DNA of 64,000 nucleotides from assembly GCA_963723495.1 (NCBI GenBank), contig CAVRQR010000009.1, forward strand, positions 712,627 through 776,626, in the 5' to 3' direction. Both the position numbers and the translations under genes were made by a program. The number at the start of each line of letters is the position of its first letter. The first letter of the stretch is position 1. The DNA comes from an uncultured Acidobacteriota bacterium. GTDB lineage: Bacteria > Acidobacteriota > Vicinamibacteria > Vicinamibacterales > UBA2999. Below are positions 15,378 through 39,101 of the stretch, piece by piece. Below the pieces are notes generated by a model. It made no database searches, was not told where the DNA came from, and saw only the letters and a program-made list of their open reading frames with translations.

Positions 15378-16271
15378 CTATCGTCTGGCCGGTCGTGGCG
15401 TCGCCGGTCGCTCGACCTTCTGTGCCGGCTGACCCACGCGCGCGACCCCGCGCGACCGCCCGTAGTCGGACGCGACCGACTCGACCGAGTTGGTCAGCTC
15501 CGGGTGCTGTGTGAGCATGCCCTCGATACGACGCACCGCCTGTCGAAGTACGGGCAGCCGCTTCTTGATCATCGTGTCGCGGTCCAGCCGATTGGTGACG
15601 TCGGAGCAGTTCGCAGCCGCGACGATCCGGCCATGCGGACCGAAGATCGGCAGCGCCACGGACACGATGCCGTAGTCGAGCTCATCCTGGATCGCTGCGT
15701 ACCCCTTGGTGCGCACATCTTTGAGAATGCGGCGCAGCGCAGCGGGATTGGTCTCCGTCTGCTCGGTCAATCGTCGCAACGTTGCGCGCTCGAAGTACGC
15801 GTCGACGGCCGATTCCGGCTGGAACGCCAGCAGGACCCGACCCATCGAGGTCGGATACGCCGGATACCGCGAGCCTGCTCCCGCCGTCAGGCGGATCGCG
15901 CGATTCAGCGAGGCGTGCGCGATATAAACAATGTCGATTTCGTCGAGGACCGTCACTGACGAGCTGCCGCCGACCTCGTTGACCACTTCCTGAAGGAAGG
16001 GCTGCAGAACGACCTCGGCGTTGATGGCGCTCAGATATCCAGTACCGATGGCCAGCACCTTGGGCCGCAGGAGAAACCGCCGACCGGTTCTGCCGACATA
16101 TCCAAGCTCTTCGAGCGTATGAAGCGATCGCCGTGCGGTCGCCGGCGTCAAACCGGTCAGCGCCGCCACTTCGCTCAGCGTGAGCTGGGGATACTCGCCG
16201 GAGAACGTCTGAAGCACCCTCAGCCCGCGCTCCAGGGACGCGACGAATTCAGCCTTTGAGTTTTTCGCCAT
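15378..16271 (-). CDS. IclR-family transcriptional regulator (PcaR/PobR-like)
   Basis: Intact 297-aa ORF. N-terminal wHTH: VASLERGLRVLQTFSGEYPQLTLSEVAALTGLTPATARRSLHTLEELGYV. The IclR effector domain follows (GSRYPAYPTSMGRVLLAF..). It is divergent from TBDR2. Confidence 0.85.
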   Translation of the reverse strand: MAKNSKAEFVASLERGLRVLQTFSGEYPQLTLSEVAALTGLTPATARRSLHTLEELGYVGRTGRRFLLRPKVLAIGTGYLSAINAEVVLQPFLQEVVNEVGGSSSVTVLDEIDIVYIAHASLNRAIRLTAGAGSRYPAYPTSMGRVLLAFQPESAVDAYFERATLRRLTEQTETNPAALRRILKDVRTKGYAAIQDELDYGIVSVALPIFGPHGRIVAAANCSDVTNRLDRDTMIKKRLPVLRQAVRRIEGMLTQHPELTNSVESVASDYGRSRGVARVGQPAQKVERPATPRPARR

Positions 16272-16276
16272 GCGAA
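16264..16276. promoter_or_regulatory. palindromic box TTCGC-cat-GCGAA centred on the IclR start codon
   Basis: The central cat (16269-16271) is the ATG of the minus-strand IclR gene. A TATAAT (minus strand, 16290-16285) lies 13 nt upstream. Confidence 0.5.
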
Positions 16277-16343
16277 GAGTCCAGATTATAGCCTGCTCTC
16301 AGGCCTAAATCCCTGCCTACCCTGCTTTTGGGGCTTGTAATCC

Positions 16344-16447: not shown

Positions 16448-19400
16448 ATGCGAGAGCGAGCAATAGCCCTGCTCCTGACCCTGGGGGTCCTGGCACTTCC
16501 GTCGGTGACGTATGCGCAGGCGCTCGGCACTATCGCCGGGGCCGTGAGAGATGCATCCGGAGCCGTGCTGCCTGGCGTGACCGTCGAAGCGTCCAGCCCG
16601 GCGCTCATCGAAAAAGTTCGAACGGTGGTGACCGATGGAAGCGGTCAGTACCAGATCGTGAATCTCCCTCCCGGCACCGTACGCCGTCACGCTTCACGCT
16701 GCCCGGATTCAGTACCTTCAAGCGCGACGGCGTCGAGGTGTCGGTGAACTTCACGTCGACCATCAACGCCGAGATGCGCGTCGGCGCGGTCGAGGAAACC
16801 ATCACGGTCACCGGTGAGAGCCCGATCGTCGATATCCAGTCGGCCGCGCAAACCCGTTCGGTGACTCAGGACATCATCAAGCAGCTTCCCGGCGGCGGCT
16901 CGTGGATTCAGATGGCCGCGAGCGTGCCCGCCATCCGCGCCGAGCGTCACGGACGTCGGCGGCGTGCTCGGCGATCAGGTCGGCGCGCAGGTGCAGGCGC
17001 ACGGCAGCCTGAACGGCGACGGCGTGTCGCTCTTCGACGGTCTGCGCATCGGCAACATGTACATCAGCTCGAACCTGACGAACATGAGCCTGTCGCCGCT
17101 GCTGTTCGATCAGGTCGACGTGCAGCTCTCCGGACAGAGCGGCGAGACGGGCACCAACGGCGTCATCATGAATGCCATCCCGCGGTCGGGCGGCAACACG
17201 GTTCCAGGGGTCGGCGCTGGTCAGCGGCTCCGCGCCCGAGCCTGCAGGGCAGCAACATCACCGACAGGCTGGAGGCTCGTGGTGTGGCGGGCGCGTCCAC
17301 GACGCTCAAGAAGCTGTTCGACATCAACGGCGCCGTTGGCGGACCGATCAAGCAGGACAAGCTCTGGTTCTACTTCACCTCGCGCTATTTCACGAACGAG
17401 TTCTACCTGGCGGGCCTGTACTACGCGCAGGACCCGACGGCGATTCGCCGCGCCGAGGACCCAGGCAACCAGGCATTTGGCGGCACCTATACCTACGACA
17501 ACAACGGGCGCGTCACCTGGGGCATCAACGACAAGCAGAAGTTCACCGGTTGGTACGCGTATCAGTACAAGGTCGACCCGCACTGGACGATCGCCGCGGC
17601 AACCACTGCGCCTGAGGCGGTGCGCGTCACGACGTGGCACACGCAGCTGTCCACCTTCAAGTGGACGTACACGGCCACGAACCGTCTGCTCTTCGAGGCG
17701 GGCGTTGCACCGGGCGCGAGCCCCGACACGATCATCGCCGAGCCCGACCGCATCAATGGCATCTCCATTCAGGACCAGGGGAGTCCTGCGGGCAGCACGC
17801 TGGGCATCAGACCGCTGATCTATCGTGCGCCGCAGGGCTTCGACTTCGACGACCGGCTTCCGTCTCAGAGCTTCGCCGCGTCGTCGAGCTACGTCACCGG
17901 CAGCCACAGCGTGAAGGTCGGGTTCGACATGCAGCGCGGTTACTTCTGGCGCGGTGACAACAACGAGTCGACTGGCGGCATCTGGTACCGCACACGCGAA
18001 GTACGTGCCCGAACCTGGTCACGATTCAGGCGCCGAATGCAGGTTGGCAGAACAATCTCAACTACAACCTCGGCATCTACGCGCAGGACCGCTGGACGAT
18101 GAATCGCCTGACGGTGAGCGGCGGCATCAGGCTCGACATGCAGAACGAGTCTACGTCCGACTTCACGTCGCAGCCGCACCGCTGGTTGCCCACCCGCAAT
18201 GAGTTCTACCCCGCGGTCGAGAACGTCCCGAACTGGAAGGACATCAACCCGCGCGTCTCCGTGGCCTACGATCTGTTCGGCACTGGCAAGACGGCGATCA
18301 AGGCGAGCGCGAGCCGGGGCGTGGAGCAGGACTCGATCCGCTATGCGGCCGCCAACAATCCCGCCAACACGCTCGGTCACTCAGGTCAGCCGCGACGTGG
18401 AACGACACGAACAATCAACTTCACAGCCGCGACTGCGACCTCCTGCAATTCCCAGCCGAACGGTGAGTGTCTCGTGTGGCAGGATCTCGGCTTCGGCAGC
18501 TCCAGGGTGAGCACCTTCTACGATCCCCGCATGCTGGAAGGGTGGGGCGTGCGGGGGTATAACTGGGAGTTCTCGGCCGGCGTGCAGCACGAGATCATCC
18601 CGCGGCTCTCGGCGAGCGTCGGCGCTACTTCCGGCGCATCTACGGAAACTTCAACGTCCTGGACAACGAGGCGCTGAGCGCCTCAGACTTCACGCGAGTA
18701 CAGCGTCGTCGCGCCGACCGACGCGCGTCTGGAGCTCTGCGGGACAGACGAGTCGGCGGCATCTACGACCAGAACCGTGCCGTCGCGAACCGCAACGTCA
18801 TCAAGCCTGCATCCGATTTCGGCGACGTGAAATCGCACTGGAACGGAGTGGACTTCTCGATCGATACGCGGCTCCAGAACGGGGTGCTGCTGCAGGGTGG
18901 TATCAGCACCGGCAAGACACGTGAACGATTACTGCGACATCATCGACGAAGTGCCCGAGGTGCTTTCGTCGGCTGCCGCCCCGACAGGGGTTCTGCTGGT
19001 CGGAATTGGCGCACCGGCGGCGGCGTGGACGCCAGCGGGATTCTGTCACCAGGAGACGCCGTTCCTCACGCAGTACAAAGCGGTTGGCGCGTACACGCTG
19101 CCGTACGGCATGCGCATCAGCGGCACATTCCAGAGCGTGCCTGGTCCCGTCAGTCGCCGCCAACAACATCTACACGGCGGTGCCGCCCTCTCTCGGCCGG
19201 CCTTTCTTCGCCGGCCAGTCCACGGTGAACGTCGTCGAGCCGGGCACGTCGTATGGCGACCGGTTGAACCAGGTCGACTTGCGGTTCTCGAAGCTGTTCA
19301 ACCTGGGGCAGGGGCGGCTCGATCTGAACGTGGACCTCTACAACGCGTTCAACTCGGACGCGATCCTGACGCAGCAGAACGCCTACGGCGCGACATGGCA

Positions 19401-19642: not shown

Positions 19643-19722
19643 ACTCGTGCCGTGGCTCGAGGTTAGGCGAGCCGTTATTAACACTTCACCAAGGGGACAG
19701 AGGCAGGATGAGAGGTAAGAGA

Positions 19723-22700
19723 ATGCGCGCAAGTGTACGAACGCTTCTTGTGCTGGTTTGTATGATCGCCGCCCCCGCGGCCGCGTGGGCGCAGGCCACG
19801 ATCGCTGGCGCGGTCCGGGACTCCTCCGGTGCCGTCCTGCCAGGCGTGACGGTTGAAGCCGCCAGCCCGGTGTTGATTGAAAAGGTTCGCACGGCGATTA
19901 CCGACGGCACGGGTCGCTATCGAATCGAGGATCTCCGGCCCGGCACCTACACCGTGACGTTCACGCTCCCCGGCTTCGTGACCGTGAAGCAGCGAAGGCC
20001 TCATCGTCAGCGGCACGGCCGTCACGACGGTGAACGGTGAACTGCGTGTCGGCGGTGTGGCGGAAACGATCACCGTGACCGGTGAGACCCCGATCGTCGA
20101 CGTCCAGAGCACCAGGCGTGAGATCACGCTCGACAACGAGACCATTCGAAATCTTCCGAGCACGCGCAGCTACAGCTACCTGCTCACCACCGTTCCCGGG
20201 CTGCAGACCAACAACAACAACGTCAACACCGGTCCGGTGTTCGCGATTTTCCCGATCCATGGCGGCCGCGGCGTCGAATCGCGCCTGACGGTGGACGGAC
20301 TCAACATCAGCAACCCGCCCGGCGGCAACCAGCCGTCGAACTACGTCGCCGACGTCGGCAACGCATCGGAAGTGACGATGACCACGTCAGGCGGCCTCGG
20401 CGAGTCGGAGACAGCCGGCCTGACGGTCAACATCGTGCCCAGGCAGGGTGGCAACACGATGTCGGGGATGGTGTTCTACTCCGGGTTCTCGAAGGGGATG
20501 CAGTCGAGCAACTACGATCCCGAGCTGGCAGCGCGCGGCGTGCTCCAGCCGAATCCCGTGTACCACGTCTACGACTTCAACACCGCAGTGGGTGGGCCGA
20601 TCGTCAGGGACAAGCTCTGGTACTACATGAGCGTCCGCTGGCAGGGGCAGCGGCAGAACACGCTGAACCTGTATGCCAACCAGAACGCCGGCAATCCGAA
20701 CGCATGGACCTGGGTGGGCGACTACGACACGCCGGCGTTCTCGGATCGCACGTGGGAGAACTACACCCCTCGCATCACGTGGCAGGCATCGCAGAAGAAC
20801 CGGTTCACGTTCGTGTGGGATGAGCAGCCGATCTGCCGCAAGTGCACCGGGACCACCTCGTTCAGCGGCTCGCCCTCACCGACGACCTCACCCGAGGCGG
20901 ACGGGCTTGGCGACTTCAACCCGCAGCGCGTCCAGCAGGCGAAGTGGACCTCGCCGATGACGAGCAAGCTGCTCCTCGAAGCGGGCCTCGGCACCAGCGC
21001 CTACCAGTGGGCCGGTAAGGAACGCGATCCCAACCCGACCCATGACCTCGTCCGAGTGGTGAACAACGGGCAGATTTTCGTGCCGGCTTCCGCGACGACG
21101 CCTGCCGTTGTCGGCAACATGACGTATCGCTCGCAGAACTGGTACGAGAACAGAACCGCCGGGGTGAACTGGACCGCGTCGGGCACGTACGTGACCGGTT
21201 CGCACAGCATGAAGTTCGGCTATCAGGGCTACTGGTGGAAGGACGACCGCCAGATGTTCGTCAACAGCCAGAGCCTGCAGTACACGTTCAACAGCGGCGT
21301 GCCAAACCTCATCGCTCAGTACCTCAACGGGTACAAGGTGAACGCGCGCGCGATGTCCACGTCGTTCTACGTGCAGGACCAGTGGACGCTCGGCCGCCTG
21401 ACGTTGCAGGGCGCGCTCCGATACGACAATCCGTGGAGCTGGTTCCCCGAAACGACGGTGCCGGGAAGCCGTTTCTTCGAGGGTGCCACCTTTTCGAAGG
21501 CTGACGGCGTGACCGGCTACCACGACATCACGCCGCGCATGGGTGCCGCCTACGATCTGTTCGGAAACGGCAAGACCTCGCTGAAGGTGAACCTCGGGAA
21601 GTACCTCCAGGGCGCCAGCGTGAGCAACCTCGCCTATGGCGCGAACCCGGCGTTGCGGATCCCCGGCGGCGACACGACGTTCGGCGGTACGTTCGCCCCG
21701 ATCGACGAACCGCAGCTGGACGGACAACGACCGCGACTTCGTTCCGGACTGCGACCTGAACAATCCGCTGGCGCAGGGTCCGGCAACCACCGGCAGCGTC
21801 GACAACTGCGGCCAGATCAGCAATCTCCAGTTCGGCACAACCCAGCTCGTGCCGACGACCAACTTCGATCCGGGGCTACTGTCTGGATGGGGCGTTCGTC
21901 CGTCCGACTGGTCGTTCGGCGTTTCAGTGCAGCAGGAGATCATCCCGCGCGCGTCCGTGGAGGTCGGCTACTACCGGCGCTCGTTCACTCAGTTTTTCAC
22001 CGGCGGCACGGTGACCGACAACCTTGCGATATCGCCGAACGACGTCGCCGCGTACACGATCACGGCGCCAAGCGATCCGCGTCTGCCCAATGGCGGAGGC
22101 TACACGGTTGGCCCGCTCTATAACGTCAACCCGAACGTGTTCGGTCAGTCGAATCTGCTGCTCAAGTCGACGAAGGATGTCGGCGACGACACGCGCGTGT
22201 TCAACGGTGTCGACGTCAACTTCAACGTGCGGCTGAGGAACAGCCTGACGTTCTCGGGTGGCACCAGCACCGGTAAAGTGGAAAACGACTGGTGCGAGAT
22301 CCGCGCGGCGGTTCCGGAGTTCGGGCAGTACCAGCTGAACCCGTACTGCCACACCGAGTCGCCGTTCCAGACGTCGTTCCGCGGGTTGGCGTCCTACACG
22401 ATCCCGCGCATCGACGTGCTGGTGAGCACGGTGTTCCAGGACAAGATCAACGTCGGCACCGACCAGATCATGTCGCTGCAGGCCAACTACGTGTTTACGC
22501 CAGCTGACCAGGCGGCAGCGGCCGCGCAGATCGGCCGTCCGCTGACTGTGGGTGGACTGCTCCAGGCCAACCTGATCGCGCCGGGTGAGGAATACGGTGA
22601 CCGCGTCCGTCAACTCGATATGTCGGTCAAGAAGATCATGCGCTTCGGTGGTCAGCGCGTGACGGTTGGACTGGACATGTTGAACCTGCTGAACAACAAC

Positions 22701-22811
22701 GTGACACTCGCGTTCAACCAGGCGTTCTCTCCGACCACGACTGGCTGGCTGACGCCGACGACCTACATGAATCCGCGCGTCTTCCGGCTGAACGGCGAAT
22801 TCACCTGGTAA
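19723..22811 (+). pseudogene. TonB-dependent receptor, CarboxypepD_reg type (TBDR3); 2 frame changes
   Basis: Pieced from ORFs 19708..20040, 20030..22123 and 21636..22811, with shifts near 19990 and near 21705. N-terminus: TIAGAVRDSSGAVLPGVTVEAASPVLIEKVRTAITDGTGRYRIEDLRPGTYTVTFTLPGF. C-terminus: PRVFRLNGEFTW. Confidence 0.85.
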
Positions 22812-22820
22812 TCCTTCCGC

Positions 22821-22855
22821 CCCGGGATCCGCTGCGTGCGGATCCCGGGTTCTTC
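22821..22855 (+). terminator. intrinsic terminator after TBDR3
   Basis: CCCGGGATCCGC-tgcgt-GCGGATCCCGGG followed by TTCTTC, 10 nt after the stop codon. Confidence 0.7.
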
Positions 22856-23218
22856 GATGTCGAAAGACATCGTCAGTACTGCGATTCCGCCCGCCCACTC
22901 CGCAGGACCTCGACCCGTTTCCGGCCTATCACGATCGGCTCGCCTTGCTGAACTGCACGTCGATGGTTTCAGGCTGGGAGTCGAATTTTCGCCACTATTA
23001 CGTGGAATTGAACGGATCCGCCCGTGAAACGGCGGTCAAAGTTCCGTCAAGCCGATGGAGGAGCCTCGCTACGGATCTCGACTCCACCCGACCTGTCGCT
23101 TATGATCCGAAAACGACCATCTGCCGGCCGTTTCGCAGGCCGAAGGGAGAGTCGTGTCGCGACGCGCGAAGGACCAGGTAGGTAGAGTGTCCGGCAACAG
23201 CCGGACCAGGCTAAAGGC

Positions 23219-24283
23219 ATGAGCACGCTGGTCAGGGGCATCCATCACATCACGCAGTGTCCGGGACCGGCACAGCAGGATCTCGACTTCTGCACGCAGG
23301 TGCTGGGGCAGCGTCTCGTCAAGCAGACCGTGCTGATGGACGGCAGCATCCCGATCTATCACTTCTATTACGGCAACGCCGACGCCGAACCCGGATCGAT
23401 TGCGACCTCGTTTCCATACAGTCGCAAGCCCGGCCGCCGCGGGTCAGGACAGATTTCCCGTTTGAGCTACGCCGTGCCGAAGGGCACGATGGCGTTCTGG
23501 AAGGATCACCTCGATCGACACTCGGTCGAGCACAGCGGGATCGAGGAACGGTTCGCGAGGAAGTACCTCCGGATGTGGCATCCCGCCGGCATGCAGTACG
23601 AGGTCGTCGAAGCCGATGACTCGCGCCGGCCCTGGACGACGAAGTGCATCAGCGCGGACGTCGCCACCCGTGGTTTCTTCGGCGCCGTGATGTCGGTGCG
23701 CAGCATCGAAGAGCAGGAGCTCTTCTTCGTCGATGCCCTGGGCTTCCGCAAGCTTGGCGTCGATGGCCCATATCACCGGTTCGAGGCCGCTGGGGGAGGG
23801 CCGGGCAGCATCATCGATCTGCACCACGAGCCTGATCTTCCGCCGGGGACCTGGGGCTTCGGCGCCGGCACGTTTCACCACATCGCGTTCAGCGTCGAGA
23901 ACGACGAGGCACTGTTCGCCCAGAAAGCGCACTACGAAGAACTGGGCTATACGGATGCCTCGGAAGTGAAGGATCGCTATTACTTTCACTCGATGTACGT
24001 GCGATCCCCTGGTGGCATTCTCGTGGAGTGCACCGCCAATGTGCCGGGTGGTTTCTATCAGGACGAGTCGGTGGAGGAACTGGGCACGAAGCTCACGCTG
24101 CCGCCGTGGTACGAGAGCCAGCGTTCCGAGATCCTCGCGATGCTCGAGCCGGTGACCGTGCCGGACGAGAATCGACCCGAGCGCACACATCGACCTTTCG
24201 CGGGCGCGACACCCGTGGGCGCTTCGACAACGAACATTCCACTCTCGCGGAGCAACCCCGACTTTGCGCGATATCAGCGCTAG
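23219..24283 (+). CDS. ring-cleaving dioxygenase, two-domain VOC family (MhqO / LinE / PcpA-like hydroquinone-type)
   Basis: Intact 354-aa ORF with no signal peptide. Motifs: GIHHITQCPGPAQQDLDFCTQVLGQRLVKQTV..IYHFYYGN and FHHIAFSVEND..YYFHSMYVRSPGGILVE. Confidence 0.7.
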   Translation: MSTLVRGIHHITQCPGPAQQDLDFCTQVLGQRLVKQTVLMDGSIPIYHFYYGNADAEPGSIATSFPYSRKPGRRGSGQISRLSYAVPKGTMAFWKDHLDRHSVEHSGIEERFARKYLRMWHPAGMQYEVVEADDSRRPWTTKCISADVATRGFFGAVMSVRSIEEQELFFVDALGFRKLGVDGPYHRFEAAGGGPGSIIDLHHEPDLPPGTWGFGAGTFHHIAFSVENDEALFAQKAHYEELGYTDASEVKDRYYFHSMYVRSPGGILVECTANVPGGFYQDESVEELGTKLTLPPWYESQRSEILAMLEPVTVPDENRPERTHRPFAGATPVGASTTNIPLSRSNPDFARYQR

Positions 24284-24357
24284 CGAGGCTGCGCTCGGTA
24301 AACTTGATTCGTTTTGTCAGCAGTCGAGCCGGTCAAGCCGGCCAGGGGACACCGATC

Positions 24358-25360
24358 GTGATACGTCGCAGTCTTGTCGTTGCCGCGGTAGTCGTTGGCG
24401 TCATTGGCCTGTCATACCGGCTCGAAACGCCGGTGGATGCCCAGGCGCAGTCGATCGTGGTCGGCGCCGCGCACGCCATGGGGACACCCGGATCTGCAGG
24501 GCACGTATTCCAACGACGACGAGACCGGCACGCCGATGGAGCGCCCGCGCGAGCTCGAGGGAAAGACGCTGACCGACATCACGCCGGAGGAACTGCAGAA
24601 GATCGTCAAGGAGCGCAACGAGCGCTTCGTCGAGGGCGTCAGCGGCGAGGAGTTCGCGGGCGGCCTCCGGCCACCGGCGCATCTGATTTTCGATACCTTC
24701 GATCGCAAGAACAAGCAGGCGTGGCTCGTCGTCGATCCGCCGGATGGACGCATTCCGCGACGCACCGACGTACAACCGCGCCGGCCGCGCGGCGGAATCA
24801 GCACGAACGCCAACCCGAAGGGTCCGTTCAACAGCTGGCTGGACATGGGGCTGTACGATCGCTGCATCACCCGCGGCATCCCGGCCTCGATGATGCCCGC
24901 CGGCTACGGCAGCCGCTACGACATCACACAGAGCCCGGATAGCGTGGTCATCCGCTACGAGATGATCCATGAAGCGCGGGTCATTCCGCTGGACGGTCGC
25001 AGCCGTGCGGCGCAGGGGACCCGCAAGTACCTGGGTGACGCTCGCGGCTGGTGGGAAGGCGATACGCTCGTCGTCGAGACGACGAACTTCCTGCCCGAGA
25101 CCGCACCGCAGGGCTCGACCGAGCATGTCCGCATGATCGAGCGCTTCACCGCGAAATCAGCTGAGATCGTCGAGTGGCGCGTGACCTTCGAGGACCCGAA
25201 CACCTGGACGCGTCCGTGGACGTTCTCCATGCCTCTCACGAAGGTCGATCGAACACAGCAGATGTTCGAGTACGCCTGTCATGAGGGCAATCTGGCCATG
25301 CGCAACATCCTCAGCGCGCAACGCGCGGAGGAACGGGCGGCCGCTGAGGCAGCGAAGTAA
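24358..25360 (+). pseudogene. secreted 'WEGDTL-motif' family protein (paralogue P2), one frameshift near the signal peptide
   Basis: GTG 24358 opens signal peptide VIRRSLVVAAVVVGVIGLS..AQAQ (frame 1). The body is ORF 24395..25360: TPWGHPDLQGTYSN, YDRCITRG, GDARGWWEGDTLVVETTNF, NTWTRPWT, FEYACHEGN. Confidence 0.6.
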
Positions 25361-25406
25361 GCAGGGTCCCCGACGCCACGCCTGCGCGTTGGGGCGGAAA
25401 GGTTCC

Positions 25407-26288
25407 ATGAAGATCACTCTTACGCGAGCCCTGGCGGCGTCGCTGCTGCTGTTGACCGGAAGCAGCTGGGCCGCGGCGCAAACCGATTTCTCGGGTGAAT
25501 GGACGGTCGTCCGCTCCATGGATAACACCGAGAATCCATGGGTGGGCGATTTCGTCGGCCTGCCGCTCAGCCCCGACGGACTGGTCCGCGCCGAGAGCTG
25601 GGATGCGTCGATCCTCAGCCTGCCCGAGTATCAGTGCCGACCGCACGGGTGGGCGTACATCTATCGCGGCCCGACGGCGCTGCGGATCACAAAGGAAGTC
25701 GATCCCTTCTCCCGTGAGGTCGTCGCCTACCAGCCGGAGTGGCACCAGTCGACCAACATGCCGGTGTACCTCGACGGCCGGCAGGCACCGCCTCCCGAGG
25801 CAAACCATACATGGGGAGGGTTCTCGACCGCGACGTGGGAAGGCGATGTACTCCGCATCAAGACGACGCACCTGAAGGAGGATTACATCCGCCGCAACGG
25901 CGCCATGGTCAGCGATCAGGCGACCGTGACGTCGTACTGGATCCGGCGCGGTGACATCCTGACCTGGATCAACATCATTCACGATCCGGTCTACCTGTCT
26001 GAGCCGCTGATTCGCAGTTCCGAGTACCGGCTTAATGTGAACTCACAGGTACCGGCACACCCGTGCACATCAGCCTTCGAAGGCCTCGAGAAGGGCAACG
26101 TACCCCACCATCTGCCGGGTGAGAACCCGTTCCTGAAGAACATCCGAGCGCGGTATGGCCTCGCGCCGAACCTGCCGACCGGGGGCGTGCAGACGATGTA
26201 CCCGGAGTACCAGAAGACGTTACAGCCGAGTGAGTGGACCGCCGGCGATCGCAGAGCAAACGCACCGGCGACGGAGGGCCGGCGATGA
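25407..26288 (+). CDS. secreted protein of unknown function, distant 'WEGDTL' relative (paralogue P3)
   Basis: ATG 25407 within ORF 25281..26288. Signal peptide MKITLTRALAASLLLLTGSSWAAAQ. Motifs: YQCRPHGW, VYLDGRQAPP, GGFSTATWEGDVLRIKTTHLKEDYIRRNG, HDPVYLSEPLIRSSEY. Confidence 0.55.
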   Translation: MKITLTRALAASLLLLTGSSWAAAQTDFSGEWTVVRSMDNTENPWVGDFVGLPLSPDGLVRAESWDASILSLPEYQCRPHGWAYIYRGPTALRITKEVDPFSREVVAYQPEWHQSTNMPVYLDGRQAPPPEANHTWGGFSTATWEGDVLRIKTTHLKEDYIRRNGAMVSDQATVTSYWIRRGDILTWINIIHDPVYLSEPLIRSSEYRLNVNSQVPAHPCTSAFEGLEKGNVPHHLPGENPFLKNIRARYGLAPNLPTGGVQTMYPEYQKTLQPSEWTAGDRRANAPATEGRR

Positions 26289-27358
26289 GACCGACGCGCG
26301 CACTCGGGGCACTGGCAGGCGCCGTTCTCGTCTGCCTGTCATGGGCAGCCGAACGCGATGTGCTCGCACAGGCGCAGGCGAAGCCGTCCTCGGGCGACCT
26401 CAGGGTGCTCCCAATACGCGGCAATATCTATCTCCTCGCGGGCGCTGGCGCCAACGTTGTCGCCTCGGTCGGGAAGGATGGCGTGCTGCTCGTCGATACG
26501 GGCGGTGCGCAGATGGCGGACACGGTGCTCGAGACCGTGCGCGCGCTGTCGCGTATGGTCACGGCATCACCGACACCCATGAAGTCGTGCGTCGGGGTGG
26601 CGCAGGGGTGCCAGTGGTGGTCGAGCTCGGAGTTGCTGCCGACCACAGCCGGCCCGCGTGCGCCGCGGCCGATCATCGGGATCATCAACACGAGCGACGA
26701 TCCCGATCACCTCGGCGGTAACGCCGTATTGTCTGCTGCCGGCCGCGCCTACGGCGTTCGAAATATCGACAACACGTTGCCAGGTGCCTACATCGTCGCG
26801 CACGAGAACGTGACGCTGCGTCTGAGCAAGGCGGGGCAGACGGCGCTCATCGCGAGCGAGACCTATTTTGGCAGCGAGAAGAAGCTGAACTTCGTCAATG
26901 GCGAAGGTGTCGTCGTCACGCATCCCGAGTCCGCGCACACCGACGGTGACAGCATCGTGTACTTTCGCGGGTCGGATGTGATCGTGGCCGGCGACCTGCT
27001 CGACATGACGAAGTATCCAGTCATCGACCTCGCGCGAGGTGGAAGCATTCAGGGTGTCGTCGACGCGCTGAACTGGATTCTCGACGTCACGGTCGTCGAG
27101 CACATGATGGAAGGCGGCACGCTGGTCGTGCCGGGGCATGGCCGGATGACCGATGCGGCCGATGTGGCCTACTACCGCGACATGGTCACGATCATGCGCG
27201 ATCGCGTGCGCGAGATGACCTCACGCGGGATGACCCTGGAGCAGATCAAAGGCGCGCGGCTCACGCGAGACTACGACGGCCGATTCGGCAAGAGCCCGTC
27301 GTGGACGCCTGACATGTTCGTCGAGGCGATCTACCGCAGTCTCAATCCCAAAACGTAG
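26285..27358 (+). CDS. MBL-fold protein, secreted, with degenerate metal-binding motif
   Basis: ATG 26285 overlaps the previous stop (ATGA). A signal peptide is present. Beta-lactamase-fold landmarks: NIYLLAGAGANVVASVGKDGVLLVDTG, INTSDDPDHLGGN (in place of HxHxDH), AHTDGDSIVYF, VVPGHG. Confidence 0.6.
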   Translation: MRPTRALGALAGAVLVCLSWAAERDVLAQAQAKPSSGDLRVLPIRGNIYLLAGAGANVVASVGKDGVLLVDTGGAQMADTVLETVRALSRMVTASPTPMKSCVGVAQGCQWWSSSELLPTTAGPRAPRPIIGIINTSDDPDHLGGNAVLSAAGRAYGVRNIDNTLPGAYIVAHENVTLRLSKAGQTALIASETYFGSEKKLNFVNGEGVVVTHPESAHTDGDSIVYFRGSDVIVAGDLLDMTKYPVIDLARGGSIQGVVDALNWILDVTVVEHMMEGGTLVVPGHGRMTDAADVAYYRDMVTIMRDRVREMTSRGMTLEQIKGARLTRDYDGRFGKSPSWTPDMFVEAIYRSLNPKT

Positions 27359-27360
27359 CG

Positions 27361-28183
27361 ATGTCGTTCATTCATCCACGCGTCCGCCGGCGGGTCCAGA
27401 ACGCAGGACCCGCCCTACTGGCCCTTGCTCTCATCATGGCGACGTCTGCACTCCACGCGCAGCAAGGCCAGCAACCGGCCGCGCCAGCCGGTCGCGGTGC
27501 GGGCCAGGCGCCGGCCGCAGCAGCGACCGGTCGCACTCAGGCGCCATACGACATCACCGGTTACTGGGTCGCGCTCGTGACCGATGACTGGCGTTATCGC
27601 ATGCTCACACCGCCCAAGGGGAACGCCGACTACATACCGGTGAATGCCGAGGCGAGACGCGTGATGGACATGTGGGATCCCGCCAAGGATGAAGCCAGTG
27701 GCGAAGCATGTCGCGCGTATGGTGCCGCGGGCGTCATGCGCCTGCCTGGCCGCCTGCACATCACCTGGGACGGTGACAACACGCTCAAGATGGATCTCGA
27801 CGCGGGGACGCAGTCGCGCCGTTTCGTGTTTGGCACGGCGCCTCCGGCAGGCGAGCCCTCGTGGCAGGGCACATCGACGGCGCGCTGGATGTTCCCTCCG
27901 GCCGGACGTGGCCGCGGAGCTCCTCCACAGACGGGACAGCTCGTGGTGATCACCAACGCGGATGCGTCCGGGATATCTGCGCAAGAACGGCGTTCCTTAC
28001 AGCGCGAATGCGACGCTCACGGAATACTTCATCAAGCTCGTCGACGAGGAGCAGGAGTACCTGGCGGTCACGATGATCGTGGATGATCCGCAGTATCTGG
28101 CGCAGCCGTACATCAAGACCTACCAGTACAAGAAGCAGACGGACGCGACCGGCTGGAATCCCACACTCTGCTCGGCGAAGTAG
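27361..28183 (+). pseudogene. secreted protein of unknown function related to P3 (paralogue P4), one frameshift
   Basis: ORF 27361..28086 (signal peptide, GEACRAYG, SWQGTSTARW) continues in ORF 27962..28183 (MRPGYLRKNGVPYSANATLTEYF..VDDPQYLAQPYIKTYQYKK). The shift is near 27960. The gene starts 2 nt after the MBL gene ends. Confidence 0.5.
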
Positions 28184-28234
28184 CCCTTCCGGATTTTGCG
28201 GCGCGACCGGCTCGGCAGCTATGATGCCGGCGGG

Positions 28235-29422
28235 ATGGAGGTGTTTCCCGACCTGCGCGCTGGCAAAACAGAACTCCAGATCAGTGGGATCGTCGAGTTC
28301 CAGTTCCCACGGCTGGAGCGGGTCGTGTCCGGCGCAGGCACGATCGACTCTCTGGCCTCCGAACTCGATCGTCGGGGCCTGACCCGCGCCATCATCGTCA
28401 CCGGCCGAACCCTCGGTGCGTCCTCGATCCTGAGTCGAATCACGCACCCGCTTGGCGATCGATGTGTGTTCGTCTTCAAGGAGTCCAGGCAGCACGTCCC
28501 GTCGAGCTCGGTGACCAACCTTGCGCGAGCCATTCGCGAGCACGATGCCGACTGCGTGATCAGCTTTGGCGGCGGCAGCCCGATTGACACCGTCAAGGCA
28601 GCGATTCACACCCTGATCACGACAACTGGACGTTCTGCATCGACCGATGATGGGCCCACCCACATTGCGATTCCGACGACGCTTTCCGCTGGCGAATTCA
28701 CCGGCGTCGTCGGAATTACCGATGACGCCACACGAGTGAAACGCGCTGTCTCAGATGCGAGGCTCGTTCCGCGCACGGTGTTCATCGATCCGACCGTGAC
28801 GCTCGAAACGCCAGCCTGGTTGTGGGCTGCCAGTGGCGTGCGCGCTCTGGACCACGCGGTAGAGACGATGTACTCGCCGCGTCATCATCCGATGGGCGAT
28901 GCGCTAGCGTCGCGTGGGCTCTCGATGCTGCTGCAGCATCTGCCGGCCAGCCTGTCTGCTACGGGAGCAGAGCAGCTGGAGCATCGCCTGCAGTGTCAGA
29001 TAGGCGCATGGCTGTCGATCTTCGGCCTCCCGAATGCGGGGCTTGGGCTCTCGCACGCGCTCGGCCATCAGATCGGGCCGCGCTGGAATGTCCCGCACGG
29101 TGTGACGTCGTGCATCACGCTTCCGCACGCGATGCGTCTGATGGCACGTGTGGCCCCCGAGCGTTTTGGCCCGATCGCCCGCGCGTTCGATCTTGCGTTC
29201 GACGACGAAAATCCTGGCAAGGCCGCGCTCGAGAGCGCGGATCGGATGGCGCTCTTCATCTCCCGATTCGACTTGCCGCAACGGCTGCGGGATGTGCAGG
29301 TACCGCAAGACGAAGTTCGCGAGGTCGCCGGTCTCGTGCACGACATCCTGGACAAGGCGCCGATCAGCGAACGGGCCGTCAGTCGCGAACAGGTTGAAGC
29401 ACTATTGACCGGCGCCTATTGA
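28235..29422 (+). CDS. iron-containing alcohol dehydrogenase family, maleylacetate reductase-like
   Basis: ATG 28235 inside ORF 28196..29422. Motifs: FQFPRLERVVSGAGTIDSLASELDRRGLTRAIIVTG, DCVISFGGGSPIDTVKA, GLSHALGHQIGPRWNVPHGVTSC. There is no signal peptide. Confidence 0.65.
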   Translation: MEVFPDLRAGKTELQISGIVEFQFPRLERVVSGAGTIDSLASELDRRGLTRAIIVTGRTLGASSILSRITHPLGDRCVFVFKESRQHVPSSSVTNLARAIREHDADCVISFGGGSPIDTVKAAIHTLITTTGRSASTDDGPTHIAIPTTLSAGEFTGVVGITDDATRVKRAVSDARLVPRTVFIDPTVTLETPAWLWAASGVRALDHAVETMYSPRHHPMGDALASRGLSMLLQHLPASLSATGAEQLEHRLQCQIGAWLSIFGLPNAGLGLSHALGHQIGPRWNVPHGVTSCITLPHAMRLMARVAPERFGPIARAFDLAFDDENPGKAALESADRMALFISRFDLPQRLRDVQVPQDEVREVAGLVHDILDKAPISERAVSREQVEALLTGAY

Positions 29423-29608: not shown

Positions 29609-30789
29609 ATGTTGAAAGCCACTGCGGGGAAGATGCTGCCGACGACGATTACGGGGTCGTTGCCGCGGCCAAGCTGGTATACCGAGAACCTGGGGACGCG
29701 GTCGTTCCTGGATGCGATGGTGACGTCGCGGTTCCGGGAGCAGTATGTCGACGCGCTGTCGGCGTATCTGCGGGAACAGGAGGTCGCGGGGCTGGACATC
29801 GTGACGGATGGGGACTGCCGGTTCGACCAGGACATCGGCGGGCAGAGCTGGACGAGTTATCCGCCGCACCACATGAGCGGGTTCGAGACGACGCATCCGA
29901 AGCTGGCGAAGGTGGGGGCGGGGGGATCGCGTTTCCGCGCGGGCACATCCTGCACGACTACCTCGAGGCGCGGGTGATGCCGACGCTGGTGGGGCCGGTG
30001 GGGCGCGGGGAAATGCAGTATGCGGAGCTGTTCAAGGCGGCGCAGCGGCTGACGCACACGCCGGTGAAGTTCGGGACGGTGACGCCGGAACTGGTGGCGT
30101 TCGCGGTGCAGGACGAGCACTACACGACGCTGCCGGACCGCATCATGGCGTCTCGCGATGCGTTCAACGAAGAGCTGCACGACCTGGCGGATGCCGGGTG
30201 TCAGGTCATCCAGATGGAGGAGCCCCAGATTCACCTGCTGGCGGCCCGCGGGTATGTGGACAAGGTCATCAACCCGGAGTTCATGCTGAAAGTATTCAAC
30301 AACACGGTCAAGGGCCTGCGCGCGAAGACGGAAGTCTGGTGCCACACGTGCTGGGGCAACCCCTCGCAGCAGCGGATGTTTGGCAGCGTGCAGAGCTACA
30401 AGCCGGCGCTGGAGCTGCTGAACCAGGTCGATGCGGATGTGATCACGTTCGAGATGAAGAGCTCGAACATGATGGACCTGCAGGAGATCGGGGCGGCGAT
30501 CACGGACATGAAGGTGTGCATCGGGGCGATTGACCATCACACGCTGCAGGTGGAGGCGCCGACGGAGGTCGCGGACCTGATTCGGCAGGCCCTGACGGTG
30601 ATCCCGGCCGAGCGGCTGGTCCTGAGCTCGGACTGCGGGATGGGACGCGAGGGGATGAGCCGGCGGCATGCCTTCTACAAGATGGTGTCGCTGGTGCAGG
30701 GGACGAACCTGGTGAAGAAAGAACTGGGGCTGCCGGTGACGGAGAGCCTCGGGGCGGATCCGAAGTTCTCGTTGATCCGCACGACATAG
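29609..30789 (+). pseudogene. cobalamin-independent methionine synthase (MetE C-terminal domain)-like methyltransferase, one frameshift
   Basis: ORF 29609..29977 (LPTTITGSLPRPSWY..AGLDIVTDGDCRFD) continues in ORF 29599..30789 (QMEEPQIH, WCHTCWGN, SSDCGMG). The shift is near 29920. Confidence 0.65.
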
Positions 30790-30937: not shown

Positions 30938-32230
30938 ATGCGGCTCTCGCGAACGGTCCTCACGGTCGTTGCGCTGTCGTTGCCAATAGTGCTCGGCGCT
31001 CAGAACCCGGCACCGCCAACCGCCGGTGTGTCCGATCGTGTGATTCCCCGTCCTCCGGCTCGTGAGTCCAATGCGCCCGCCGACGGGAGCGCGGCGCCAG
31101 ACGGTTACTCGCCGATTCCTCAGTGGTTGGGCCAGACGCGCGCCGCGCGCGTGGCCAAATCGGAAGCCTTCACCGTACAAACCGCGGTGTCTGGCATCAC
31201 CGGCGGCTTCTCCTTCCACTTCCTGCCCGACGGTCGAATTCTGATTTCCGAGCGGCCGGGTCGAATGAGGATTGCCGCGAAGGACGGCACGCTGTCCGAG
31301 CCGATCGGCGGGCTGCCCGAGCTCTACGCGAGTGGACCGCAGGGGCTCTTCGAAGTGATTCCCGATCGCGACTTCGCGAAGAACCGGCAGATCTACTTCG
31401 GCTACACGGCGCTGCCGGCAGGACCGCGGCCAGCGGTGCTCCCTCGTCTGGCCGGCCTGCTGATGATCGCGAGTGCTCGTCTCTCGGCGGACGACAAGCG
31501 CCTCGAGAACGTGCGTGTGCTGATGAACGCTGAAGGGATCAACGGCCGGATGATTCAAGCGCCGGACGGCACGCTCCTCATCACGTCCGGCATTCCCGCG
31601 GGCGTCGGGATCCACTCGCCGGACTGGCCGCAGCCGCAGCAGTTGACCAGCCGCATGGGCAAGGTGCTGCGCATCAACACGGACGGTTCCATCCCTCGTG
31701 ACAACCCGTTCGCGGGTCGAACTGACGCGCTTCCGGAAATCTATGCCCTCGGACTTCGCGACGACCAGGGCGTGGCACTCCATCCCCAGACCAGAAAACT
31801 GTGGACGAGCGAGAACGGTCCGAGGGGCGGCGACGAGATCAACGTCATCGAGGCGGGAAGAAACTACGGGTTTCCAATCATCAGCTACGGTCACGAGTAC
31901 AGCGGCAAACCGATCAACGGCGATCGGACGACTGAAGCGGGGATGCAGCAGCCGGTGTATTTCTGGACGCCGTCAGTCGCGCCATCAGGGATGACCTTCT
32001 ACAGCGGCCGTCTGTTCCCGGCCTGGCAGGGGAACCTGTTCGTGGCGACGCTTGCCGGCAAGCACGTCTCGCGACTCGTGCTCGAAGGCGAGCGCGTGGT
32101 GGGCGAGGAACGCTTGTTGACCGCGCTCGATACGCGGATGCGTGACGTGCGCCAGGGTCCCGATGGCGCGCTCTACGTCATGACGGACGGACCAGAGGGT
32201 CGAATCCTCAGGTTGGCCCCTCAGAACTGA
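30938..32230 (+). CDS. PQQ-dependent sugar (glucose/sorbosone) dehydrogenase family, secreted
   Basis: Intact 430-aa ORF. Motifs: LPDGRILISERPGRMRI, LRINTDGSIPRDNPF, EIYALGLRDDQGVALHP, LWTSENGPRGGDEINVIEAGRNYGFP. It is a paralogue of 34700..35998. Confidence 0.75.
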   Translation: MRLSRTVLTVVALSLPIVLGAQNPAPPTAGVSDRVIPRPPARESNAPADGSAAPDGYSPIPQWLGQTRAARVAKSEAFTVQTAVSGITGGFSFHFLPDGRILISERPGRMRIAAKDGTLSEPIGGLPELYASGPQGLFEVIPDRDFAKNRQIYFGYTALPAGPRPAVLPRLAGLLMIASARLSADDKRLENVRVLMNAEGINGRMIQAPDGTLLITSGIPAGVGIHSPDWPQPQQLTSRMGKVLRINTDGSIPRDNPFAGRTDALPEIYALGLRDDQGVALHPQTRKLWTSENGPRGGDEINVIEAGRNYGFPIISYGHEYSGKPINGDRTTEAGMQQPVYFWTPSVAPSGMTFYSGRLFPAWQGNLFVATLAGKHVSRLVLEGERVVGEERLLTALDTRMRDVRQGPDGALYVMTDGPEGRILRLAPQN

Positions 32231-32548: not shown

Positions 32549-32687
32549 GAGAGCGCGACTGTGAGCGCCGTGACAGACGCGAAGCGGGGTAAAACGGGCT
32601 CGAAACGTGATGGCCGCGCAGCTCACGGAGCTGTGCGGTTACGTTGATGTGATGTGGAGAGCCAGTTTTTCCACGGCGTCGAACCGG
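32549..32687 (+). repeat. copy 1 of a ~75-nt intergenic repeat (split by a ~65-nt insert)
   Basis: gagagcgcgactgtgagcgccgtgacagacgcgaagcggggtaaaacgggc ... tttttccacggcgtcgaaccgg matches the reverse complement of 36041-36114. Confidence 0.55.
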
Positions 32688-32773
32688 AGCGCGGGGCAGA
32701 AGGTACGCTGCGGCGGGGAGTAGCAGCCGAGCGATTCAACGCTGGATCTCGAAATATGATCCTCGTTACGCAA

Positions 32774-34643
32774 ATGAAGACTTTACGCCCAGATCGTCCG
32801 GTTGGGGTCCTGACGGTAGTCCTGCTCTTGTGGATCGCCGCTCCCGCGCTGGCACAGGACGGTGGCGCGCTCTACAAGGAGCACTGCGCCAGCTGTCACA
32901 ACGGGAGCATCGATCGGGCGCCGAGCCTCGAGGTGCTCCGGGCGATGACGCCGCAGCGAATCCTGGAGGTGCTCGAGTTCGGATCGATGGTGTCGATGAC
33001 CCACGGCCGGACGACGGCCGAGAGGCGCGCGCTGGCGGAGTTCGCCAGCGGCAAGTCGCTCGGCGAGCGCTTCACGATCGAGCCGGCACAGAAGGCGATG
33101 TGTCGGACGAAGACGCCGTTCTCGATCGAATCCCTCGCAGCCCGTCTGGAACGGCTTCGGCCAGAACCTTTCGAACACGCGGTTCCAATCATCGAGCACA
33201 GGTCTGTCGGCGGCCGATGTCCCGCGGCTGAAGTTGAAATGGGCGTTTGGTCTTCCGGGCGACGTGCAGTCGTGGGCCGCGATCACCGTCGTCGGCGAGC
33301 GTGTGTTCGTCGGCAGCATCGCGGGCAACGTGTACTCGCTCGATGCGAGGACCGGCTGCGTGCACTGGGCCTTCGATGCCGGTGGCATCGTGCGAACCGC
33401 GGTCAACGTCGGCCGCATCGGCAGCGACGAACCGGCACGATACGGCGCGTTCTTCGGTGACGCGCGCGGCAACGCATACGCCGTCGATGCAGTCACCGGC
33501 CGTCTACTGTGGAAGGTCAGCGTCGACAAGTACCCGTCAGCTCGCCTGACCGGATCGGCCGTGTTGCATCGTGGCCGCCTGTACATCCCTGTTTCGTCGA
33601 GCGAGGAAGGTGCCGGCTCTCTGCCGGACTACGAATGCTGCCGCTTCCGCGGGAGCGTCGTCGCGCTCGACGCGGCGACGGGTCGTCAGATCTGGAAGAG
33701 CTACACGATTCCCGAAGAGCCGAGACCGTCTCGAAAGAACGCGCGCGGCACTCAGCTCTGGGGCCCCTCGGGTGGCGCGATCTGGTCCAGTCCGGTCATC
33801 GATGAGTCACGCAACGCGCTGTATGTCACGACCGGCAACAACTACAGCGATCCTGCGACGGCGACGAGCGACGCGTTCCTGGCAATGGATCTCGATAGCG
33901 GGAAGATCCTCTGGTCACACCAGGTCACCGCCGAACGACGCCTATGTCTCGGCCTGTCGCCTGACTGACAAGACGAATTGTCCGCAGGTCAACGGCCCGG
34001 ACTTCGACTTCGCGGCTTCGCCGATTCTCGTTTCGCTGCCCGAACGGCAAGCGAGCGCTCGTCGCCGGTCACAAGTCAGGCAACGTGTACGCCGTCGATC
34101 CGGATCAGCAGGGCGCACGCTTGTGGGAGACGCGCGTCGGCGAGGGTGGCTCGATGGGCGGTGTGCAGTGGGGATCCGCCGCCGATCAGCAGAACGTCTA
34201 CGTTGCGCTGTCCGATCTTGGTCGCGTGATGCTCACCTACACGCAGTTCACCGATGCGGATCGGCAAGCGCGGCGGCGGGATGTTCGCACTGCGGCTGGC
34301 CGACGGCACGCGCGTGTGGCACACGCCTCCGATCCCCTGCGACTCGCGACCACGCTGCAGTCCGGCGCAGTCGGGTGCGGTCAGTGCCGTTCCCGGGGCC
34401 GCGTTCGCGGGTTCGCTCGACGGTCACGTCCGCGCGTACGCAAGCGACACCGGAAAGGTCGTCTGGGACTTCGACACCGTGCGGGAGTACGAGACCGTCA
34501 ACGGTGTGCCGGCGCGCGGCGGGTCGCTCGACGGGCCCGGTCCGGTCATCGCCGGAGGGATGATGTTCGTGAACTCGGGATACACCGTCGACGGCGGAAT
34601 CCCGGGCAACGTGATCCTCGCGTTCTCAGTGGACGGCCGCTGA
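32774..34643 (+). pseudogene. PQQ-dependent dehydrogenase with N-terminal cytochrome c domain (polyvinyl-alcohol-dehydrogenase-like), 4 frame changes
   Basis: Haem site CASCHN in ORF 32654..33460. Propeller in ORFs 33234..33968 (vicinal Cys in YECCRFRGS), 33571.., 34085.. and 34254..34643. Shifts are near 33135, 33930, 34048 and 34262. Confidence 0.7.
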
Positions 34644-34699
34644 GTTCCGCACGGCGCGCAACGTGCGACAAGAGCTCTGTGGGTTGATGGAGGAACGGG

Positions 34700-37742: not shown

Positions 37743-37763
37743 TCCTTCTCCTGTCAAAAAATC

Positions 37764-37839
37764 CGTCAACTCCCAATTTCCAACACCCAACTTCCAAACG
37801 TTCTCTTGGGAGTTGGGAGTTGGAGGTTGGGAATTGACG
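37764..37839. repeat. low-complexity hairpin element, GGGAGTTGG family
   Basis: cgtcaactcccaatttccaacacccaacttccaa - 8 nt - ttgggagttgggagttggaggttgggaattgacg, between the MetE-like and LigM-like genes. Confidence 0.75.
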
Positions 37840-37849
37840 CGCATTGGAA

Positions 37850-39019: not shown

Positions 39020-39043
39020 GCGAACTTTGGTTCGTATTGCGAA
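39020..39043. promoter_or_regulatory. three-half-site box GCGAA-N6-TTCGT-att-GCGAA abutting the start of MetE-like gene 37850..39019
   Basis: Read directly. GCGAACTTTGGTTCG is identical to 40049-40063. Confidence 0.45.
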
Positions 39044-39101
39044 ATGATATTAATCCACAGCAGCATGGCGGGTCTGCTCTGTGGACCGGCCGCCACGCTA
39101 G

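Follow-up and report, generated by a model that had tools for sequence, protein, structure and literature searches.

The described systems closest to the locus considered here are the sphingomonad pcp and lin pathways for pentachlorophenol and gamma-hexachlorocyclohexane, where PcpA or LinE, a dioxygenase of the vicinal oxygen chelate (VOC) type, is paired with PcpE or LinF, a reductase of the iron-containing alcohol dehydrogenase (Fe-ADH) superfamily. Genetic linkage of an outer-membrane TonB-dependent receptor (TBDR) to aromatic catabolic genes, with import of a lignin-derived aromatic, has a precedent in DdvT of Sphingobium sp. SYK-6 (PMC6874591), and the abstract and section headings of that paper name no comparable periplasmic protein module. 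A further point of reference is the polysaccharide utilization locus (PUL; SusC/SusD) of Bacteroidota, which leads from a TBDR through extracytoplasmic binding or processing to cytoplasmic catabolism in one co-directional cluster. The locus presented here follows the same logic. It is a plus-strand cluster of six genes (positions 23219-29422) within a 64,000-nt stretch of DNA, termed the window, from an uncultured Acidobacteriota bacterium of the Vicinamibacterales (contig CAVRQR010000009.1). A PcpA-type VOC dioxygenase and an Fe-ADH stand at the two ends, with four exported proteins between them, i.e. P2, P3, a metallo-beta-lactamase (MBL)-fold protein and P4, and a TBDR (TBDR3) lies upstream.

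Compared with pcp and lin, the dioxygenase has the same metal ligands, but four exported proteins separate the two enzymes, genes for a dehalogenase or hydroxylase were not seen upstream, and a TBDR and a MetE-like gene form part of the conserved module. The assignment of the reductase is insecure, the host is an acidobacterium, and the substrate is probably no chlorinated xenobiotic. In contrast to DdvT, the TBDR is of the acidobacterial CarboxypepD_reg/OMP_b-brl_4 type; we know of no periplasmic module of the P3-MBL-P4 kind in a DdvT-type system. Unlike PULs, the cluster has no glycoside hydrolases, no lipobox Cys is found in the exported proteins, and the downstream enzymes are those of aromatic ring cleavage. 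A SusD-family Pfam match was also absent among the open reading frames (ORFs) scanned, which cover 14.3-39 kb. Because no SusD-like partner was seen among these genes and no inner-membrane transporter in the cluster, the 'PUL-like unit' of an earlier, sequence-only reading of this DNA is an analogy only.

What might such a cluster do? Our tentative reading, held at a little under even confidence, is that of a modular TBDR-linked catabolic cluster for a p-diphenol aromatic of hydroquinone/quinone type, probably derived from lignin or humus, in which two separately conserved modules are combined. Module A would consist of the TBDR, VOC, P2, Fe-ADH and MetE-like genes, and module B of the P3-MBL-P4 triad inserted between P2 and the Fe-ADH gene. 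The TBDR would import the aromatic compound, and the periplasmic barrels P2, P3 and P4 may capture a poorly soluble or reactive ligand. In module B, two calycin-like barrels are pictured as sitting on an MBL-fold subunit whose SxDxDH metal site is rich in carboxylates; the MBL subunit might modify the ligand, e.g. by hydrolysing a conjugate, or might merely scaffold the barrels. The compound would then reach the cytoplasmic ring-cleavage enzymes, where the PcpA-type Fe(II) dioxygenase is predicted, with support from its sequence, to cleave the (substituted) hydroquinone ring and the maleylacetate-reductase-like Fe-ADH would reduce the cleavage product. A role of the MetE-like protein in methyl-group or one-carbon handling may be supposed, because a DesA/LigM-type O-demethylase and a second MetE-like gene are found 7 kb away.

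The ring-cleavage enzyme is central to this proposal. The VOC protein (23219..24283, plus strand, no signal peptide) is a two-domain Fe(II) dioxygenase of the PcpA/LinE/MhqO type. It matches the two-domain architecture of PcpA (4HUZ; roughly 320 residues) over its full length in phmmer (E 2.4e-70, query 5-307 to chain 6-311), and MhqO (3OAJ) also over its full length (E 4.2e-59). The Fe(II) ligands of PcpA, His11, His227 and Glu276 (2-His-1-carboxylate), lie opposite H10, H221 and E270 in the alignment, with all three ligands kept. By these sequence criteria it is a true hydroquinone dioxygenase of the PcpA/MhqO type, with predicted ring cleavage of (substituted) hydroquinones, in agreement with the LinE/PcpA-type assignment made earlier.

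The Fe-ADH protein (28235..29422, plus strand, no signal peptide) clearly belongs to its superfamily (Pfam Fe-ADH 1e-30, ADH_Fe_C 2.1e-30), and no NCBIfam model matches it at its cut-off. The best PDB matches are 9ph0 'MAR1' (153 bits, 7.7e-44) and 3jzd (144 bits, 4.7e-41; deposited solely as iron-containing alcohol dehydrogenase), both presumably of the maleylacetate-reductase type. Lactaldehyde reductases score 127 bits (about 1e-36). The earlier label 'maleylacetate-reductase-like' is therefore reasonable but not established: the family and the best matches stand, but the named maleylacetate reductases 3hl0 and 3w5s score lower (108-110 bits, about 1e-30). The VOC and Fe-ADH genes share one array here, and P2 alone lies between them in L048 and in type B loci.

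The row of genes does not stop at Fe-ADH. A same-strand gene for a MetE-like protein of the Meth_synt_2/URO-D clan follows (29609..30789; Pfam Meth_synt_2 4.7e-22), with a frameshift near 29935 and its N-terminus in another frame; NCBIfam methionine-synthase models fall far under their cut-offs. It is kept 3' of the Fe-ADH gene in L003-L006, L028, L032, L048 and L053-57. Ending the cluster at Fe-ADH is thus arbitrary, as the unit extends to the MetE-like gene. The earlier description of a six-gene plus-strand cluster with short gaps is borne out in its coordinates and spacing, but not in where the unit ends, nor for P2 and P4, which are frameshifted (see below).

In Bacillus subtilis, MhqO-type dioxygenases of the MhqR regulon protect against methylhydroquinone and catechol. 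Could the locus likewise be a system for detoxification of quinones and hydroquinones rather than for nutrient use, with the barrels sequestering toxic quinones? We consider this distinctly unlikely. It is true that the VOC protein is as clearly related to MhqO as to PcpA, that calycin-like barrels suit sequestration, and that an inner-membrane importer is not encoded. A detoxification role does not, however, fit well with the conservation of an energy-dependent outer-membrane importer upstream, and the downstream reductase, together with the complete gentisate-pathway genes of other lineages (discussed below), suggests carbon funnelling. An IclR-type regulator and a nearby O-demethylase are also typical of catabolic loci.

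How well is the arrangement conserved? One genome per species was scanned, which gave 45 loci, all in metagenome-assembled genomes (MAGs) and almost all in Acidobacteriota (Vicinamibacterales, Terriglobia). The tallies are from tblastn mapping; greedy ORF calling had produced antisense shadow ORFs. P3, MBL and P4 occur together in fixed order in 44 of the 45 loci, down to 42-50% identity. Within 10 kb of this triad there is a TBDR gene in 20 loci, a DUF6152 gene in 18, a MetE-like gene in 14, a PcpA-like VOC gene in 10 (nine tallied plus a contig-edge VOC fragment in L006) and an Fe-ADH gene in six; gentisate 1,2-dioxygenase is found in four loci and an FAH hydrolase in five others. All six genes in exactly this order, with the MetE-like gene after them, are present in the species genomes L003, L004, L005 and L028 and on the full-length metagenome contigs L053, L054, L056 and L057; L058-60 and L106 have partial copies. 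The synteny is thus shared by at least four species genomes and four full contigs and is not unique to the window.

The two enzymes had been thought to frame the periplasmic genes as one unit, and this part of the sequence-only reading has to be given up. In close relatives the order TBDR-VOC-P2-ADH-MetE occurs without the triad (L048, L061, L062, L065, L068 and L070). The TBDR-triad combination occurs without VOC in L002, L007, L016 and others, and many loci have it with none of VOC, P2 and ADH. For this reason the 'bracketing' is, as gene order indicates, a lineage-specific composite in which the triad sits between the P2 and ADH genes of a separate module. Orthologues of TBDR3, with 57-92% identity, precede all three arrangements, whether the composite, VOC-P2-ADH by itself or the triad by itself, which argues for a shared cargo.

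The exported genes are associated with ring-cleavage genes in three architectures. In Vicinamibacterales-like genomes a PcpA-type VOC gene, with or without Fe-ADH, lies beside them, and the VOC gene adjoins P3 without P2 in L006, L018, L024, L025 and L032, as well as in L020, where a TBDR gene lies between. In Terriglobia the order is TBDR-FAH-gentisate 1,2-dioxygenase-DUF6152-P3-MBL-DUF6152-P4, where the dioxygenase matches 2D40 at 9e-119 and FAH and DUF6152 were identified by Pfam. The third architecture has a LysR gene beside P3-MBL-P4-P2-catechol-type extradiol dioxygenase-PrpF, and a Rieske oxygenase gene in the vicinity. P2 itself adjoins a ring-cleavage dioxygenase in locus types A-C and, by spacing, in type D. 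Gentisate clusters, with gentisate 1,2-dioxygenase and fumarylpyruvate hydrolase, represent another p-diphenol ring-cleavage route, and in the Terriglobia relatives they embed the same triad; the window, however, has neither gene, and the association is found only in distant orthologues (42-50% identity). As genes of three ring-cleavage families lie beside the triad or P2 in one lineage or another, the link of the exported genes to aromatic ring cleavage is recurrent on gene-neighbourhood evidence, and in this respect the aromatic-utilization proposal has gained ground. Hydroquinone, methoxyhydroquinone and dimethoxyhydroquinone are fungal products from lignin-derived acids (PMC13559804), and no literature was found that joins hydroquinone dioxygenase, maleylacetate reductase, TonB-dependent uptake and Acidobacteria.

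What are the exported proteins? The N-termini of P2, P3, MBL and P4, judged from their sequence features, are signal-peptide-like (a K/R-containing start, a hydrophobic core and an AxA-like site) and those of VOC and Fe-ADH are not, as had been noted before. P2 (24358..25360), P3 (25407..26288) and P4 (27361..28183), all on the plus strand, have a relative of 281 residues elsewhere in the window (7849-8694, minus strand, divergent from TBDR1), which has a signal peptide and the motif 'GWWEGDTLVIDTTGF' and is a fourth member of the superfamily. None of these four proteins has a credible match in Pfam even at E<=10, an NCBIfam match, or a PDB sequence or profile match at E<=10, so the description of P2, P3 and P4 as uncharacterized holds after profile and structure searches. 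P3 and P4 are clear paralogues by profile comparison (hhalign probability 99.7%, E 8e-27, 190 columns, both Cys residues included). P2 is a probable, not certain, distant member of the same superfamily; it aligns with P3 at a probability of 83.6% (E 8e-6, 81 columns) with the shared core 'DGR...WEGD.L.V.TT.F...DP', and with P4 weakly. P2, P3 and P4 share a conserved pair of Cys residues, and in P3, where C77 and C220 are invariant, a disulfide is likely. The families are large: there are at least 1608 P3 homologues and at least 8000 P2 homologues at 90% clustering, and the P3 profile finds at least 4122 representatives at E<=1e-3 and 50% clustering, with 456 under 1e-30. Members that carry a source name are all 'hypothetical protein', and the majority are unnamed.

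A structural model of P3 offers a hint of function. An AlphaFold2 model from a shallow alignment of 36 sequences had a pLDDT of 59.9, and Foldseek gave nothing significant. The diversity for a usable model came from a homologue search on a divergent paralogue, and the resulting two-clade alignment of 93 sequences gave a model with eight main strands (pLDDT 77.7, pTM 0.75). Its top 30 Foldseek matches in the PDB are all barrels of the fatty-acid-binding protein (FABP), SAHS or avidin kind. The best structural reading, not proven, is that P3 is a small-ligand-binding calycin-like barrel (FABP/lipocalin-type) with long conserved insertions. Like the calycins (FABPs, lipocalins, avidins; in bacteria the Blc/YceI types), P3 would be an exported protein with an antiparallel beta-barrel core, but its sequence resembles that of no calycin family, its length is roughly double, and it carries long conserved insertions and a C-terminal extension, and is always paired with a paralogue and an MBL-fold protein, to which it is often fused.

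The exported MBL-fold protein (26285..27358, plus strand) is the middle member of the triad. It matches Pfam Lactamase_B (38.7 bits against a cut-off of 22.7) and, remotely, the SoxH-related model TIGR04559. The TIGR04558/TIGR04559 zinc metallohydrolases are likewise exported MBL-fold proteins and give the best named match; the window protein, however, falls far under the cut-off (67 against 280 bits), has an SxDxDH motif and has other gene partners. Its motif is SDDPDH, with His196, Asp221 and His263 retained (AHTDGD, AGD and PGHGR). A survey of 50 orthologues and fusion domains shows Ser at position 116 in 35 and His in eight, Asp at position 118 in 29 and His in nine, with Asp120 in 43, His121 in 44, His196 in 38, and Asp221 and His263 in 41 each. 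Canonical HxHxDH is kept by a minority of the triad MBLs (L030, L031, L034, L039, L040 and L050), and in L033 and L042 most metal ligands are gone. The metal site seems to be evolving inside one orthologous group. Because SxDxDH stands in place of HxHxDH, the protein is unlikely to be a canonical di-zinc hydrolase; it may instead have a mononuclear or carboxylate-rich metal site, or serve as a scaffold. Periplasmic processing as proposed earlier is left without support by this motif and by P proteins that resemble ligand-binding barrels rather than known enzymes.

Do the three proteins act together? The P3 and MBL reading frames overlap by 4 nt, and 2 nt separate those of MBL and P4. The best 150 P3-profile representatives include 31 fusions, namely 23 P3-MBL, seven P4-like-MBL and one P3-P4. 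The barrel-MBL fusions P0369, P0376, P0384, P0388 and P0410 are about 600 residues long, P0456 (787 residues) adds a further C-terminal domain to a P3-like barrel-MBL fusion, and P0361 (501 residues) joins P3 straight to P4. From the invariant co-occurrence, the overlapping or adjacent frames and the frequent gene fusions we infer that P3, MBL and P4 form an exported complex. A bolder proposal can be made, although it is doubtful: that the triad is a periplasmic machine, unrecognized so far although very widespread in soil bacteria, which receives TBDR-imported hydrophobic or reactive aromatics (quinones or hydroquinones from lignin and humus) and prepares them chemically for cytoplasmic ring cleavage, with P2-type paralogues and DUF6152 as frequent partners. 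Its two calycin-like barrels would be mounted on the MBL-fold subunit, and SxDxDH would be a new kind of metal site. It would be the aromatic counterpart of the SusD/binding-protein layer.

The state of the reading frames also bears on these proposals. The gaps between the six genes are 74, 46, -4, 2 and 51 nt, and the ORFs of VOC, P3, MBL and Fe-ADH are unbroken. P2 (1003 nt) and P4 (823 nt) have lengths not divisible by three, and in both the signal peptide is encoded in one frame and the mature part in another (frames 1 and 2, respectively, in P2). The sequence-only reading had located both genes correctly but had joined the two frames silently. L003, the closest relative found, is an Acidobacteriota MAG with approximately 86% DNA identity, and relative to it there is an extra single base near 24448 in P2, near 27957-27958 in P4 and near 21700 in TBDR3. 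Comparison with the intact L001, L002 and L003 homologues places the joint of the P4 frames at 27955/27956. At least nine single-base frameshifts are found between 9 and 30 kb (9186-30200), in TBDR1 (8865-12014), TBDR2 (16738-19400), TBDR3, P2, P4 and the MetE-like gene.

Is the locus decaying, with real frameshifts in the TBDR, P2 and P4 genes and the cluster reduced to pseudogenes? That the three insertions relative to L003 lie outside long homopolymers would agree with decay. Yet the shifts are spread over unrelated genes, as is typical of error-prone long-read assembly; the same kind of breaks is seen in the long-read MAG loci L001, L028 and L032; and there are no in-frame stops beyond those that the shifts create. 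Ratios of nonsynonymous to synonymous substitution (dN/dS), calculated against three relatives, are 0.04-0.18 across all six genes, with P2 and P3 the most constrained; they are 0.06-0.09 for VOC, 0.04-0.07 for P2 and 0.04-0.12 for P2 and P4 together, low as in intact genes. Decay is thus very unlikely. Since homologues of P2 and P4 elsewhere have whole reading frames, dN/dS is low, the shifts run across many unrelated genes and similar MAGs have similar breaks, the frameshifts are most likely assembly errors, neither decay nor recoding. Programmed frameshifting in P2 and P4 was considered separately and is ruled out by the intact homologues, the lineage-specific extra bases and the many unrelated window genes that are shifted. 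The pattern resembles that of an unpolished long-read assembly, and this bears on every ORF-based reading of the window.

Several neighbouring genes are of relevance. TBDR3 (19708..22811, plus strand) has a CarboxypepD_reg-type N-terminus, a Plug domain and an OMP_b-brl_4 barrel by Pfam. Its true start is 19708, and the signal peptide and CarboxypepD_reg-like segment lie inside ORF 19708-20040; a second shift, besides that near 21700, is found near 20030. The TBDR gene is directly upstream of the cluster, as had been stated, with a gap of 407 nt to VOC and no plus-strand ORF of at least 80 codons in between (22812-23218). The window contains four TBDR genes, and the one at 56053-59256 is unbroken, unlike those at 9-30 kb. 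An IclR-family gene upstream of the TBDR genes (15378..16298, minus strand; Pfam IclR_C 1.2e-34, HTH_IclR 4.4e-16) is a candidate regulator, and the order IclR-TBDR-triad is also seen in L002 and L008. No Rfam model reached its gathering threshold anywhere in the window, so that no riboswitch, of the cobalamin or another class, was detected beside the MetE-like or TBDR genes.

On the other side of the cluster, 7 kb downstream, a gene for a DesA/LigM-type tetrahydrofolate-dependent aryl O-demethylase adjoins a second MetE-like gene (36483-38003 and 37850-39049, minus strand). The demethylase scores 620 bits with the NCBIfam syringate O-demethylase (DesA) model and 1.9e-132 with LigM (PDB 5x1i); the match spans model positions 1-360 of 453 only, so the gene may be cut short or frameshifted. 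This pairing suggests a role of MetE-like proteins in recycling the methyl-tetrahydrofolate that arises when methoxy-aromatics are demethylated, and the context gives a hint of methoxylated substrates from lignin. Immediately 3' of the cluster, two genes for exported glucose/sorbosone-dehydrogenase-like proteins (sGDH) dependent on pyrroloquinoline quinone (PQQ) flank a cytochrome c-domain gene (30938-32230, 32654-33460 and 34688-35998, plus strand); similar sGDH genes occur near the triad in L019 and L023. Further away, an ankyrin-repeat protein is encoded at 44005-45621 (plus strand), and its weak NCBIfam matches to Legionella Ank effectors reflect the repeats only.

A companion of the triad in other genomes, absent from the window, is DUF6152. 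It is a small exported protein in which 'HHS' begins the sequence after the hydrophobic signal segment, so that a His-rich stretch is probably at or beside the mature N-terminus. DUF6152 accompanies the triad and P2-like paralogues, sometimes in two copies interleaved with P3, MBL and P4. Examples are found in L034, L039 and L040 (about 9160-12680), in L009, L011 and L014 (about 12730-12780) and in L002 (19405-19812). No literature naming DUF6152 was found.

A number of findings weigh against a catabolic p-diphenol cluster. No recognizable ring-cleavage gene is present within 10 kb of the triad in 26 of the 45 loci, and the triad often adjoins DUF6152, cytochrome c or DUF1552/1592-type genes instead. 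The cytochrome c and DUF1592-DUF1552 context recurs and is unexplained by an aromatic-catabolism model; in seven dioxygenase-less loci (L009, L010, L011, L014, L027, L029 and L031) the triad has a di-haem cytochrome c-like neighbour, and the same seven have a putative DUF1592/DUF1552-type pair, recognized by sequence features only. The cluster lacks a gene for an inner-membrane transporter, and the genes that it has leave the crossing of the inner membrane unexplained. Lactaldehyde-reductase-type enzymes are not separable from the Fe-ADH by score. The catalytic motif of the MBL is non-canonical and is partly lost in some orthologues. The Foldseek matches of P3 are borderline (probability 0.5-1.0, best E 9.7e-4), with TM values of 0.45-0.62 when normalized to the small targets and 0.3 to the query. 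Annotated or experimental function was found for none of the relatives of P2, P3 and P4. Scans for promoters and terminators yielded as many matches as shuffling predicts and are uninformative on operon structure.

Might the locus then be two unrelated modules, co-located in a TBDR-rich nutrient island, in which the triad, with DUF6152, is a general TBDR accessory for other cargo (a metal, a cofactor such as PQQ, or a lipid) and has no aromatic role? The many triads with no nearby dioxygenase point this way, as do the frequencies of DUF6152, with its His-rich HHS, and of TBDR genes near the triad. The four TBDR genes of the window, the two PQQ-dependent sGDH-like genes beside the cluster and the only named relatives of the MBL, which are SoxH-like hydrolases of a 'quinoprotein relay system', are also consistent with it. 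We nevertheless regard it as rather unlikely, given that PcpA-type VOC, gentisate dioxygenase and catechol-type extradiol genes are found next to the triad or P2, in lineages and gene orders that differ, that the triad here lies inside the VOC-P2-ADH array with gaps of 46 and 51 nt, and that VOC adjoins P3 without P2 in six species. The reading as a modular catabolic cluster for p-diphenols remains the one that we tentatively prefer.

Acidobacteriota rank among the most abundant bacteria in soil and are mostly uncultured, and how they take up and use aromatics from lignin and humus is poorly known. The cluster ties an assignable pair of hydroquinone ring-cleavage enzymes, together with a TonB-dependent importer, to three families of proteins that are described in no database, of which P2 and P3 are conserved as strongly as the enzymes or more so (dN/dS 0.04-0.08). 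An enzyme pair linked to a TBDR is a type of system already known. By contrast, both the P3-MBL-P4 triad and the P2 family are undescribed, widespread and strongly conserved, and the module in the cluster may prove to be new in its own right. The gene fusions predict a physical complex, and the gene neighbourhoods predict p-diphenols and quinones as the substrate class. If this is true, a new periplasmic step would be added to bacterial aromatic catabolism, and thousands of 'hypothetical proteins' in soil metagenomes would receive names.

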